Source of the DNA: a virus | Lineage: Duplodnaviria; Caudoviricetes | Virus record (IMG/VR): IMGVR_UViG_3300026549_000036 | Length of the DNA: 64,000 nucleotides | Reading direction: 5' to 3' (one strand) | Shown here: positions 3,993 to 57,295 of the stretch, one piece after another | Position numbering within the stretch: the first letter of the stretch is position 1 | Layout: the number at the start of each line of letters is the position of its first letter | Program-made: the position numbers and the translations under genes | Notes under the pieces: model-generated | The model's input: the letters and a program-made list of their open reading frames with translations, nothing else | Database searches by the model: none | What the model was told of the DNA's origin: nothing

Positions 3993-4841
3993 ATGCAAGT
4001 ACAAAACATTAAAAGTCAATTTGATAATAAAATGGTGCCTTTGGAACTCACCGAAGGCGTTATGAATAACATAATTAAGTGTATTAAGGACCCTATAACC
4101 TGTCCGAATAAAGACAACATTCCACAATGGAAATTCTGTACTGTCAAAGGCAACATACGTTGTAATGACAATATGGATAAAACCAACATTCTAATTCTTG
4201 ACTATGATGATGCTGGTTATTCCTACCAGGAATTTGAAGATAGATTTAGAGGTTACAAATACTACTTACATACAAGTTATTCCTATAATGGAACTAATAG
4301 TAAGTTCCGTGTATTGTTGTTCCTTGACAAAGAATATGATATTGACAAATTGTTCTGTAAGACATCACAAGCAATTTATAGTCCATATACTTTGTTAGTA
4401 AATTATTTTAATCACGTAGATAAAGCCAGTTTCGTTAAATCACAATTTTTTAAGGTTCCAGCCGTAAAAGATAAAACTTCTCCATATTACTACAACATTC
4501 ACGATGGCGAACTGTTCAGTATGGATAACATAACTTCTTTTACATTTGCTTATGAAAATTGTGCACAGTTCCTTGAAAACGAAAAGAGAGATAGAGAATA
4601 CAAAGCACAAGTATTCAAAACTCAATATACTGGTGATTTGACAAAGGCTTTGGAATATGTGAAACGCAAAATGGAAGCCGCCCTTCCAGGTGAAAGACAC
4701 AACGCAGTATTTGGATTGGGTGCTTTCTTCCAGCATTGTGGTGGTGACTATGATACGTTCTCACGAATTAGACCAAGCTGGGCAGATAAAAAATTTGATT
4801 CTCAGATGAAAAGACTTGAAAAGGAATGGTTCAAACTATGA
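3993..4841 (+). CDS. Primase-polymerase (AEP-like) protein with PriCT-like C-terminus
   Basis: LILDYDD, HTSYS, KFRVLL, GERHNAVF motifs; ATG at 3993 preferred over TTG at 3885. Confidence 0.7.
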   Translation: MQVQNIKSQFDNKMVPLELTEGVMNNIIKCIKDPITCPNKDNIPQWKFCTVKGNIRCNDNMDKTNILILDYDDAGYSYQEFEDRFRGYKYYLHTSYSYNGTNSKFRVLLFLDKEYDIDKLFCKTSQAIYSPYTLLVNYFNHVDKASFVKSQFFKVPAVKDKTSPYYYNIHDGELFSMDNITSFTFAYENCAQFLENEKRDREYKAQVFKTQYTGDLTKALEYVKRKMEAALPGERHNAVFGLGAFFQHCGGDYDTFSRIRPSWADKKFDSQMKRLEKEWFKL

Positions 4842-5224
4842 CAAAAGAAGAACTTGTTAATTTATTAGAACACTCTGGACTAAACATTTATTTGAGTGAA
4901 GCATTTACAACAGATGATAATGAAGATTTCATTATACAAAAATACGCAAGTTATAAACCAACCACTCAAACTATTTTTGAATTTGAAAATGGTACTACAA
5001 TAAAGTATTATGACTATTTCCTTCACAAATTGAATTCACCAAATTTTTATGGTGACCTGTATATTGCTTTACCTGAAAAACCTGGTCTAACATTAGACTA
5101 TTCGTGCTATAATGAACAAACTATGCTTGACCTTTTGGATAGACGAATTAGGCAATATGAAGAAGTTTTAAAAGAAGTTAAGCAGAAAAACAAAGAATGG
5201 AAAGTTGGGAAGGACTTTGAATGA
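4838..5224 (+). CDS. DF-tail family hypothetical protein
   Basis: Ends KEWKVGKDFE. Confidence 0.7.
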   Translation: MTKEELVNLLEHSGLNIYLSEAFTTDDNEDFIIQKYASYKPTTQTIFEFENGTTIKYYDYFLHKLNSPNFYGDLYIALPEKPGLTLDYSCYNEQTMLDLLDRRIRQYEEVLKEVKQKNKEWKVGKDFE

Positions 5225-5571
5225 CAATAAATGAAATGATTGAAATGAAGGAGTTCGCTAGAGGTCTCGGCTATACCATTAGAGAGAATGATTGGGTAGA
5301 CCGCCGAAAATTTACAGTTCGTTATCCAAATTCAACTCTCTATTCTACTGTGCTTGATTTTACTTACGAAGGTTGTGATTATGTTAATTTGGATGAATCT
5401 TCAGTTGAAAGACTTATTCCTGGAGATTTTCACGGAAATCCAAGACAAACATTTTATGTTGGTGATTTGAATAAAGACGCTGTACAGAATTTTCTAGTTA
5501 AAAGATGGAAAGATTATAAGGACTATATTGAAGCCATAAAACTAAATAAAATAGAGAGTGATTTTAATTAA
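5221..5571 (+). CDS. DF-tail family hypothetical protein
   Basis: Ends KLNKIESDFN. Confidence 0.7.
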   Translation: MTINEMIEMKEFARGLGYTIRENDWVDRRKFTVRYPNSTLYSTVLDFTYEGCDYVNLDESSVERLIPGDFHGNPRQTFYVGDLNKDAVQNFLVKRWKDYKDYIEAIKLNKIESDFN

Positions 5572-5588
5572 ACAAAAGGAGAACCAAT

Positions 5589-55187: not shown

Positions 55188-55531
55188 GAGTAGATAGAGG
55201 ACAAAACACAATAAATGAAATTAACGGGATTGAGCAAATCAGTCTCGGTAATTTTTCATTTTTCAGACAACCAATTCGTGTAGGAGCAAGAAAACTTCAT
55301 AGTTCATTCTCAGTAGAAGCCCAACAGGACATTAAGGCTATGAAGGGCATAGATATGATGCAGTCAATGGTGAATTCTTTAGCTTCCGAAATGACTGCTG
55401 AAATTGATAAAGAAACTATTAGACGAATACTTGACCGAATTGAGATTACACATTTTGACAGAATAATTCATTATATTCATGGAGAAGATTTATGTTTGAC
55501 AGCCAAAAATTGTCATTTGAAAACTTCGTAA
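55178..55531 (+). CDS. gp23 central-fragment mini-protein
   Basis: ARKLHSSFSVEAQQDIKAMKGID....LASEMTAEIDKE resembles gp23 SRQLKAAYSIELAQDLRAVHGMD....LATEIMLEINRE. Confidence 0.75.
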   Translation: MRIRVDRGQNTINEINGIEQISLGNFSFFRQPIRVGARKLHSSFSVEAQQDIKAMKGIDMMQSMVNSLASEMTAEIDKETIRRILDRIEITHFDRIIHYIHGEDLCLTAKNCHLKTS

Positions 55532-56158
55532 TGGGTTATAAGCATCGGAGTGTATATTTTCACTTCGGATTCTTGCCGAGTTTGTCAAGACTATAAGCGA
55601 GATATAGAATGGATAAACAACTGTTTCCTGTATTTCGTAGAAGTTAATACTGAAGAAGAAAAATCTATATTAGCGAAGATTATTGACAGAACAGCATTGC
55701 CAGCTACAGTTGCTTATTTGGATAATGAAATTAAATTTATCCGAATGGGTGAAGTTTTTGAAGCAGACTGGATTGAGTTTGACCAGTTCTTAAAGCAATT
55801 TCCTGACAAACCTTTGCCGAAAGATGAAATTCAAAGACGAATAGAAAAGCAGAAAAATCGTTGTTTGTTGACTTACTACATTTTTCCACAGGACATCAGT
55901 GAAGAGAAACGCACTGAACTCATAAATAAAGCACATGAATACAACGAACTACCTATTGACATAGATAGATTATGTGTTGGTGTGGATAAAAAAGAAAGGG
56001 AAAGAATGTTAGAAGGTTCTTATCATTTTGCGAAGTTGATTTTGTGGAAAGACCCACAAGCATCAGTAGCAAATTATAGTCCTTTCGCAAATGATATTTT
56101 GATTGGTTACACGAATGTAAACCAGGAAATTAAATTTATTCAAAGGGAAATTGTATGA
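55492..56158 (+). CDS. Thioredoxin-fold protein (CRVC), +1 frameshift at CGG 55546
   Basis: GGAG SD before ATG 55492; join GYKH-GVYIFTSDSCRVC. Confidence 0.75.
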
Positions 56159-56919
56159 TACAAATTATACCCGTAAAAGAACGAAAAGAAGACCAAAAAG
56201 ATACTGATAAGATTTTTTATATACCTAACGAAATCAAGCAGAAAAAGAAAACACTTGTATTGGATTCAATGGCAGCTAAGTACAATTATGCGATTGAAAA
56301 CATTGTATTGAAAAACGAAGACCCAATAATTTGTTTTCGTCACGAAGATGCTGAAATTAGAAGTCCAATGGAAGTTTGCGAATACAAACTAACAAATGCT
56401 TTCGCAGACAAAACAGTTGGTTGTTGTGGTTTGATTGGAACAATGGCATTGGAAAACAGTTGTACTTGGTGGGGACCGAACAGACCATTACAGACTGCTG
56501 GCTATATTATTCAGGGTGGAACCAGACCAAAACTTGACGAGAATGGTAAGGAAATCAAGAACGAAAAGGGTCAAGTTCTAATGGAAAAGATAGAATACCC
56601 TATGGCGGATTTTCCTGGCTATCACGATTTTATGGCAACAGTAGATGGTTGTTGTATGTTCTTCCCTCGTTGGGTATTTAAGAATGGACTTCGTTTTGAC
56701 GAAAATCTAAAAGAATTCCACTTCTATGATTGCGACATTTGTTTACAATTACTAGAAAAAGGATTGAAGGTTGCTACTATTGACTTGGTTGTTAAACACC
56801 AGTCTAGCGGTATTCCATCAAAGAACTTTAATGATTTGAAACTTGTATTCTTTAACAAGTGGAATAAGAAAGTTCACGGAGAATGGCCGATTTCAAACAT
56901 TAGCACCTTTTATGAATAA
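56155..56919 (+). CDS. GT-A/GT2-like glycosyltransferase
   Basis: KYNYA, CFRHED, VDGCC, FDE..FHFYDCDIC. Confidence 0.8.
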   Translation: MIQIIPVKERKEDQKDTDKIFYIPNEIKQKKKTLVLDSMAAKYNYAIENIVLKNEDPIICFRHEDAEIRSPMEVCEYKLTNAFADKTVGCCGLIGTMALENSCTWWGPNRPLQTAGYIIQGGTRPKLDENGKEIKNEKGQVLMEKIEYPMADFPGYHDFMATVDGCCMFFPRWVFKNGLRFDENLKEFHFYDCDICLQLLEKGLKVATIDLVVKHQSSGIPSKNFNDLKLVFFNKWNKKVHGEWPISNISTFYE

Positions 56920-57295
56920 GTTAAATGCTGAACAGATAATAAACGAGATAAAGTCAAATTTTAATGAAATGACTTTTGATATAAAGTATCAGGACAATGT
57001 TCCTGCATATATGGTGGGATTCTATAAGAACTCCCACATTTTTGTGTTTAATTTATTTGACAGAAGTGTTTCGTTTAAGAATTTCTACCAGAACTATGTT
57101 TATCAAAAATACATTAAGCCAACAATGCTTAATAGTGAAAAGTTTTTGGTAGAAACGGAAGGAGTTAATTTTGATTATAATTTGCACAGATCATTACTAA
57201 CAAAATTAATTCCAAAAATCGTTTTAGGGTTCAAAAAATACTATATTAACAATAAGCAGGAGACAATAAATGAAGACTTCCAATGTAGAACCTGA
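56912..57295 (+). CDS. DF-tail family hypothetical protein
   Basis: Ends ETINEDFQCRT. Confidence 0.65.
   Translation: MNKLNAEQIINEIKSNFNEMTFDIKYQDNVPAYMVGFYKNSHIFVFNLFDRSVSFKNFYQNYVYQKYIKPTMLNSEKFLVETEGVNFDYNLHRSLLTKLIPKIVLGFKKYYINNKQETINEDFQCRT

Follow-up and report, generated by a model that had tools for sequence, protein, structure and literature searches.

The 64,000 nt stretch of viral DNA analysed here (Duplodnaviria; Caudoviricetes; IMG/VR record IMGVR_UViG_3300026549_000036), referred to as the window, codes almost wholly on one strand, has a GC content of 29-36%, and carries a large set of small open reading frames (ORFs) whose products share one C-terminal motif, the DF tail. Further window genes encode a gp45-type sliding clamp, an exonuclease, a dUTPase, DNA methyltransferases, homing endonucleases, a GH10-like glycosidase and a nucleotidyltransferase. 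A 210-kb IMG/VR contig with an estimated completeness of 56%, G002, is ~95% identical to window positions 1-31346 and was used as the main comparison genome. The DNA polymerase of G002 (919 amino acids, aa) was found to share only 27-31% identity with gp43 of cyanophages and one pelagiphage, which makes the source a T4-type jumbo phage, though a very distant one. It appears to be an uncultured T4-like phage of ~400 kb from the cattle rumen.

A C-terminal motif shared by many small ORFs

Of the 110 ORFs of 40 aa or more on the plus strand of the window, 51 were found to encode proteins in which an Asp-Phe (DF) pair at the C-terminus is followed by 0-4 residues, where ~2.6 would be expected from the rate of DF in protein interiors. 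An earlier reading of the letters and their translations (the original prediction) had described about 48 proteins with a shared C-terminal tag, a K-rich helix ending in DF. The tag is real, and the set proved to be larger than described, both in the window and in G002, where 132 of 424 ORFs are DF-tailed. The motif also extends further upstream than had been noted. With the Asp numbered 0, it consists of K(-14), K/R(-7), L/I(-6), I/L/M(-3), D(0) and F(+1), a 16-residue pattern K-x6-K/R-L-x2-I/L/M-x2-D-F, and is present in full in 42 window ORFs that span 16.0 kb, or 25% of the window. Across the 51 DF-ending ORFs, K(-14) is found in 45, K/R(-7) in 47 and I/L/M(-3) in 42. The number of G002 ORFs with the full or core motif is 97-105, depending on the definition used, and a tail profile search of that genome found 101 sites.

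When only the upstream part of the motif, [KR]x6[KR][LIMV]xx[LIMV]xx, was used to pick C-termini, DF came next in 96 of 98, and the DF is therefore not an artefact of selecting on DF. The first 50 kb of T4, examined as a control, includes 4 ORFs ending in [DE]F among 103, none of which has the motif.

Five of the 51 DF-ending window ORFs were counted as non-members. Two of these (664-1056 and 21696-22049) have clamp-type tails, described below, and in three (8048-9958, 48297-48728 and 57270-57719) the DF appears to be due to chance. A PHROG match to a clamp loader among the DF-tail set falls on 57270-57719, which lacks the motif, and was discarded.

Members extend from 4838 (the ATG of the first) to 57295 (the end of the last), the limits that had been predicted, and the four tails quoted as examples were all located, as was an unbroken array of 19 members (Table 1). 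Eighteen members of this array end with DF within 4 residues of the stop codon, and in the other (36049-36330) DF lies nine residues before it. Array sizes in the window are 19, 7, 4, 3 and 3 genes. Statistics on coupling and on protein bodies were calculated for 164 members (130 translationally coupled and 34 uncoupled), and a strict set comprised 133.

One alpha/beta family among several kinds of body

BLAST and phmmer separated the 133 strict members into ~120 clusters and recognised only a few related pairs, which are neighbours. However, a recurrent N-terminal helix, MTxEEFxxLCxKYGL, was recognised, and an iterated 15-position profile of it found 33 ORFs, always at the N-terminus, 31 of them DF-tail members. 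A profile of the bodies with the tail removed recruited 44 members and 4 non-members (E<=1e-3), and overall such profiles recruited 44-53 of the 164 members, thus at least 27% of the DF-tail proteins are one alpha/beta family. The original description of the proteins as otherwise dissimilar, with diverse N-termini, therefore stands at the level of BLAST and phmmer but not for this family and its shared N-terminal helix.

An AlphaFold2 (AF2) model of a 94-residue alpha/beta member, built with an alignment of paralogues, has a helix at residues 3-12, five short strands and a last helix at 63-93. Its predicted local distance difference test score (pLDDT) is 73, with ~90 in the last helix and 47-66 in the strands. 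The product of 35579-36049, modelled from its single sequence (pLDDT 76), is all-helical with a separate last helix of 19 residues (136-154), and an N-terminal membrane helix is predicted in five members. The tail sits on at least three kinds of body, alpha/beta, all-helical and membrane-anchored. Its conservation is equal in members with the N-terminal motif and in the 133 without it.

Two genes of the alpha/beta body family have no DF tail. The tail-less tandem pair in G002 (reverse-complement 59919-60242 and 60239-60568), with products ending ..KYWFDYNMKAHSII and ..KYYERLNTRTI, has the alpha/beta body and the N-terminal motif, and provides natural controls.

The tail as the end of a helix

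In the AF2 models, the last 16 residues are the end of a helix. Across 132 global representatives, positions -26, -22, -18 and -15 form one hydrophobic stripe and positions -10, -6, -3 and +1 a second, which is turned by ~135 degrees from the first and has K(-14), K/R(-7) and D(0) aligned beside it. Given this second stripe and the line of K, K and D, the last four helix turns therefore present a face of their own.

Phe is the final residue in 83 of the 164 members, and the residue after it is either absent or E, K or V. In the relative L022 (28% GC), DF can be followed by as many as 12 residues, and EF takes its place in a few tails. In the distant lineage L021, K/R(-7) is found in 3 of 17 tails compared with 43 of 44 here (p = 4e-10), and K(-14), the hydrophobic residue at -3 and DF are kept. 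The lineage-wide loss of K/R(-7) would fit either co-evolution with a shared, lineage-specific reader or a founder effect.

Selection on the protein and on the overlapping ribosome-binding site

The Asp, Phe and Lys codons of the tail are used as in the background. GAT and GAC are used for the Asp in a ratio of 35:16 (background 790:442), TTT and TTC for the Phe in a ratio of 37:14 (background 638:395), and AAA and AAG for K(-14), the best-kept flanking position and 42 nt upstream of the Asp codon, in a ratio of 90:53, again as in the background. Six codons (AAA, AGA, CGA, AAG, CGC and CGT) are in use at K/R(-7). At tail positions with the same amino acid, codon identity over all pairs of members was 0.557, compared with 0.512 expected from codon usage. 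The rate of synonymous substitution (dS) in the tail, 0.24 against G002 and 0.43 against the relative L015, equals that elsewhere (0.19-0.20 and 0.40-0.41, respectively). The ratio of non-synonymous to synonymous rates (dN/dS), calculated with two relatives, was 0.28-0.35 in the member bodies, compared with 0.14-0.24 in their tails and 0.12-0.22 in genes outside the set.

The original prediction had held that the tail codons often double as the Shine-Dalgarno (SD) sequence of the next gene, that selection acts at the protein level as well, and that the motif would vanish in uncoupled members if conservation were confined to the SD nucleotides. The full motif did not vanish there, being present in 26 of 34 uncoupled and 99 of 130 coupled members (76% each, p = 1). 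An SD-forming wobble G at codon -1 was found in 81 of the 130 coupled members (62%) but in only 4 of the 34 uncoupled ones (12%; p = 7.5e-8), and GGA lies inside the xDF codons of 72% of coupled and 15% of uncoupled members. Codon -1 is GAG or AAG in 22 of the 51 DF-ending window ORFs. Thus, purifying selection on the amino acids maintains the tail whether or not a coupled gene follows, and where a gene follows, codon -1 is additionally tuned to GAG or AAG, with xDF doubling as the next SD, so that both parts of the proposal were borne out. An SD-like word at the 3' end without an xDF ending was found in 107 of 163 coupled non-members.

A recombination handle for cassette shuffling had been suggested as well, and this idea failed, as codon identity between members is close to that expected and tail dS is equal to dS elsewhere.

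Clamp-type tails as a separate class

A second class of tail, hydrophobic-[DENT]-[DE]-F-[FL]-x, was found in this phage. It is carried by the polymerase (..GLDDFFV), by methyltransferases, of which three or four have it (three end ..GLNDFFE, ..PLTEFFE and ..EFDEFFS), by a phosphoesterase (..WNEFFI) and by two small ORFs (..SFEDFFV and ..SILDFLN). Every one of these tails has a pair of adjacent hydrophobic residues, and the carriers are mostly DNA enzymes. The T4 tails read from NC_000866 are ..SLDFLFG in gp43, ..SLDFLYEAND in gp55 and ..TLDFLL in gp33. As the methyltransferase tails resemble these clamp-binding tails, several of the methyltransferases may ride on the sliding clamp.

The DF tail was compared with the clamp-ligand patterns [ST]-L-D-F-L-[FYL] and Qxx[ILM]xx[FY][FY]. 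Like T4 clamp tails and PCNA-interacting peptide (PIP) ligands, which dock different proteins on one hub, it is portable and lies at the extreme C-terminus, with an acidic residue beside the Phe and, three positions before the last aromatic residue, a hydrophobic one. However, position 0 is Asp in 96 of 98 DF tails and not the second hydrophobic residue of the clamp/PIP pattern, and the carriers are >100 ORFans and not a few DNA and transcription enzymes. As it has Asp at 0, is helical and sits on ORFans, the DF tail is not the ordinary clamp-binding motif of this phage. T4 clamp tails are placed on flexible linkers (PMC2988020), whereas in the AF2 models the DF tail ends a continuous helix (63-93) or the 19-residue helix, and K(-14) and K/R(-7) are conserved. 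The idea of gp45 as the partner is weakened because the polymerase and methyltransferases here use a different C-terminal motif.

Distribution and database searches

A profile of 36 alpha/beta members, searched against 1.84 billion cluster representatives, gave 145 full-length matches (E<=1e-3). Each is a distinct 50%-identity cluster from public metagenomes, and the alpha/beta subfamily thus totals at least 145. DF ends 132 of them and 122 have the full motif, and the lengths are 83-147 aa, with one of 186 aa. Most share 23-50% identity with anything in this genome or are unmatched by BLAST, and the contigs that carry them are up to 375-417 kb long.

The motif matches no database family, solved structure or paper among those searched. 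Pfam and PHROGs searches with 50 + 109 members returned only outliers and coiled-coil noise, and ~105 of the 109 in G002 had no match. In profile searches of the PDB, the lowest E values were 0.26 and 0.08. Foldseek searches of the PDB and BFVD with the alpha/beta model had a best E above 0.5 in both, the weak matches including the head-plus-coiled-coil proteins XRCC4/XLF and SAS-6, and the best Z in a VIA structural comparison of this model was 5.2, to LptE. Only unnamed phage clusters were found in the ESM Atlas, and a tail-only profile searched against 5.8 billion proteins found only close orthologues (best E 5e-3). No match to one member was found by tblastn in 50,697 deposited phage genomes, and the motif was not described in the literature covered by a full-text search.

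Expression signals

Sigma-70-type sites, TTGACA-N16-18-TATAWT, were found at eight positions where 0.37 are expected. All are on the plus strand, and several head units containing arrays. T4-type late promoter words TATAAATA lie at 14816-14879, 39330-39439 and 48729-48804, after hairpin-like GC-rich repeats, and precede two paralogous homing-endonuclease genes (14880-15833 and 39440-40549) and a 584-aa ORF (48805-50559). As the sigma-70-type sites head their units and the late promoters lie before other genes, the DF-tail arrays are probably early.

An inverted repeat, TGTAAAC-N4-TTTTACA, was found at 25211-25228, 26679-26696 and 46302-46319 and at several sites in G002 (4 found versus 0.15 expected). 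The copies at 25211 and 26679 are directly after an array- or operon-terminal stop codon and ~20-30 nt upstream of TTGACA-N17-TATATT, and the repeat is a candidate operator or UP-type element.

Possible roles of the DF tail

The reading that we favour, and to which we give about an even chance, is that the DF tail is a portable docking helix for one common partner, a clamp or a protease being included as special cases. The tail would bind a partner outside its own protein and would tether a large repertoire of small, fast-evolving early proteins to it, the contact being made by the conserved helix face of K(-14), K/R(-7) and D(0) with the adjoining stripe. New members would arise by tandem duplication, after which the body diverges while the tail stays. 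As the genes are small, evolve rapidly, have sigma-70-type promoters and have grown in number by tandem duplication, they may have functions in early host takeover or counter-defence. A more far-reaching version, in which the tail is an address label with which a clade of ~400-kb T4-like gut phages routes about a third of its proteome, >100 diversifying early effectors, to a single hub, is tenable though we would not put it as high as an even chance. Candidates for such a hub include a protease or unfoldase, the clamp on DNA, the machinery of transcription or of translation, and a compartment built by the phage.

Several points weigh against a docking helix. A partner of >100 proteins would have to be abundant or only transiently bound. 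At least a quarter of the members are true paralogues with a shared N-terminal helix, and their conserved termini could pack against each other inside a single protein. The AF2 models are moderately confident (pLDDT 73 and 76), one of them being made from a single sequence, and the change at -7 in L021 could stem from one founder gene and not from co-evolution with a partner.

The alternative that survives best, unlikely though we judge it to be, is that the members form a hyper-diverged paralogue family in which the last helix is structural or self-associating, clasping the N-terminal helix or forming a coiled coil, and has no external partner. The N-terminal motif co-occurs with the tail in 31 of 33 cases, the body-only profile draws in 44-53 of the 164 members, and detectable paralogues are adjacent, indicating growth by tandem duplication. 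Pairing of the helices would be permitted by EE in helix 1 and K/K in the tail, and the weak Foldseek matches to XRCC4/XLF and SAS-6 are to proteins with a head and a coiled coil. However, conservation of the tail is no lower in the 133 members that lack the N-terminal motif, and the tail is found on all-helical and membrane-anchored bodies as well and is missing from some members of the body family. Its stripe is on another face of the helix than the earlier stripe, and a near-invariant exposed K/K/D-F on ~120 unrelated-looking bodies would be unusual for a structural helix.

Two specific partners were considered, each of which we regard as improbable. The tail might be a weak or competing ligand of the gp45-type clamp (20913-21641), a helical variant of the T4/PIP motif, given the hydrophobic residue at -3, acidic residue, F at +1 and extreme C-terminal position that it has in common with clamp ligands, and the location of the clamp gene among the arrays. 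This is opposed by the phage's own clamp-type tails on DNA enzymes, in which a pair of hydrophobic residues takes the place of the D-F of the DF tail, by the flexible linkers of the T4 tails as opposed to a long helix, and by the implausibility of >100 competitors for three sites per clamp.

A degron or adaptor tether, through which a host or phage AAA+ protease clears or regulates the early proteins jointly, is held to be just as improbable. C-terminal tethers of this kind include the ssrA tag and the SspB XB tail. The near-C-terminal position and the early promoters suit a degron, and >100 clients would need an abundant catalytic reader. The tail is, however, charged ([EK]-D-F followed by E, K or V), unlike known non-polar C-terminal degrons such as ssrA (..LAA), the analysis connected no protease or unfoldase of the phage with it, and up to 12 residues follow DF in L022.

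There is still less in favour of a nascent tail peptide that pauses the ribosome at termination and so promotes re-initiation on the overlapping next gene, and we consider it very improbable. The conserved residues fall within the last ~16, which fits the exit tunnel, and 130 of 164 members are in coupled arrays, but DF can lie anywhere from 0 to 4 residues before the stop codon, or as many as 12 in relatives, and uncoupled array-terminal members keep the motif just as well. A by-product of nucleotide constraints, whether SD and stop/start overlap or a DNA recombination handle, can be dismissed despite the GAGGAT or AAGGAT before many overlapping starts and the GGA in 72% of coupled members, since the motif is kept in members that lack a coupled gene and in those that lack GGA, K(-14) is situated 42 nt 5' of the Asp codon, and the synonymous tail sites are randomised.

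Two other candidates were rejected. In a mimic of the tip of single-stranded DNA-binding protein (SSB; ..DDDIPF-COOH) the Phe must be last, but it is last in only 83 of 164 members and followed by up to 12 residues in L022. In the case of a prohead-protease site, judged by the T4 cleavage consensus, [LI]-x-E precedes DF in fewer than half of the members.

Comparison with other systems

Poxvirus ankyrin/PRANC (F-box-like) proteins and Legionella Dot/Icm effectors with C-terminal signals, for which the machines are the SCF ligase and type IV secretion, are similar to the DF-tail set in that many fast-evolving, diverged proteins carry a C-terminal label to one machine and have multiplied by duplication. 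They differ in organism and machine, and have no sequence or fold relation to the DF tail. If the address label is correct, it would be the phage counterpart of PRANC/F-box or Dot/Icm effector tagging, and could be exploited as a portable tag.

The C-terminal membrane-targeting helices of MinD and FtsA (the latter ending ..KEF) are, like the DF tail, basic, amphipathic and at the very C-terminus. They differ from the DF tail, in which charged residues predominate, only three or four positions are hydrophobic and the Asp is invariant, and some carriers of which are already anchored by a predicted transmembrane helix.

Jumbo phages are known to have lineage-specific expansions, an example being the ~35 copies of a Zn-ribbon in Bacillus phage G (PMC7824862), and T4 has the early LSm-like family GoF/MotB.1/Frd.2 (PMC12152347). 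As in the DF-tail set, these are small early T4 or jumbo phage proteins that appear unrelated in BLAST comparisons but belong to a single family. In the AF2 alpha/beta model, the predicted order of one helix then five strands would be that of the LSm type, the strands having a pLDDT of 47-66, and no LSm, Hfq or SH3 entries were among the structural matches of this model (Foldseek E > 1; best Z 5.2). The DF tail differs in its copy number, ~100-130 per genome or a third of the ORFs and severalfold above the Zn-ribbon case, and in that the conserved element is a terminal helix where those expansions conserve a domain.

In big phages, no block of genes of unknown function is larger than that of the small early genes, which are normally studied singly. 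Here, one 16-residue handle links >100 such genes, and naming the hub would open a way into the function of a third of a 400-kb genome. The motif also allows an effector repertoire to be recognised simply in metagenomes, and its two readings, protein motif and ribosome-binding site, are statistically separable, making it a clean natural example of one sequence read twice.

Genes and other features of the window

The DF-tail members and other features are listed in Table 1.

Table 1. DF-tail members, clamp-type tails and other features of the window, and clamp-type tails in the relative L005
Feature	Coordinates	Strand	Details
Small ORF, clamp-type tail	664-1056	+	..LSILDFLN, like T4 gp33/gp55/gp43 tails (..LDFL.); non-member
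Member	4838-5224	+	..KEWKVGKDFE; N-terminal helix motif
Member	5221-5571	+	..KLNKIESDFN; no coupled downstream gene
GH10 (xylanase-like) ORF	5589-7403	+	Pfam E = 4e-50
Clamp-type tail	7480-8079
Member	15868-16263	+	Body weakly related to that of 16384-16614
Member	16384-16614	+
Member	16614-17039	+
Member	17011-17412	+	Variant, V at -14
Single member	19397-19927	+	176 aa; full motif; no PHROG match
gp45-type sliding clamp	20913-21641	+
Small ORF after clamp gene, clamp-type tail	21696-22049	+	..GSFEDFFV; not a DF-tail member
7-member array	22765-25207	+	22765-23208, 23205-23561, 23561-23905, 23895-24173, 24170-24541, 24541-24912, 24905-25207; 24170 and 24541 members are tandem paralogues; 24905-25207 closes the array, ..KLAKIQEDF, codons CAA GAA GAT TTT TAG
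Clamp-type tail	29406-29936
Promoter-like TTGACA-N17-TATATT	29970-29998	+	Heads unit running into the 19-gene array
19-member array	31013-37886	+	Unbroken; translationally coupled genes
Member of 19-gene array	31333-31662	+	RLEKMEKDF
Member of 19-gene array	32325-32783	+	Membrane-anchored (predicted)
Members of 19-gene array, alpha/beta	33348-33632, 33910-34311, 34301-34687, 34674-34952, 36606-36923, 37491-37886	+
Member of 19-gene array	35579-36049	+	All-helical (predicted); KLKRLQGDF
Single member	42008-42523	+	171 aa; ..KMKKLNSDFED; codons TCC GAT TTT; no SD; no coupled gene
Sole sizeable minus-strand ORF	42553-43098	-	181 aa
Member	43188-43604	+	Likely start 43221; KLNKMKEDF
Member	43604-44077	+	..KKLDKMHSDFAD; terminal
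Rfam cow-rumen-2 RNA (RF02947)	44252-44357	+	78 bits; full length
4-member array	44547-45089, 45086-45379, 45376-45705, 45702-46142	+
Member	47414-47740	+	Variant, ..MKKHLDEDF
Member	47938-48297	+	Full motif
3-member array	51845-52186, 52183-52446, 52443-52778	+	Promoter-like TTGAAA-N17-TATATT immediately upstream; KLEKLKEDFV in 52183-52446, RLEKMEKDF in 52443-52778
Single member	53555-53959	+	134 aa; ..HRTYKLNEDF
Last member	56843-57295	+	150 aa; ..KQETINEDFQCRT (four residues follow DF)
Clamp-type tail, relative L005	15734-18490	-
Clamp-type tail, relative L005	15052-15747	-
Clamp-type tail, relative L005	12937-13671	-

The cow-rumen-2 RNA is located in a 469-nt gap, with one 45-codon ORF, that separates two DF-tail arrays. 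One protein of a relative was found to be filed by one source under a Methanobrevibacter metagenome-assembled genome, probably through a binning error. The RNA match and the filing of this protein point to the ruminant gut as the habitat. The GH10 ORF is possibly an auxiliary metabolic gene, or its product a cell-wall or capsule depolymerase. The minus-strand ORF is kept in relatives L015-L017, where it encodes 185 aa. In L015, an IS605 OrfB/TnpB (Cas12f-like) gene (18829-20076), which is not in the window, has been inserted after the orthologue of 51845-52186.

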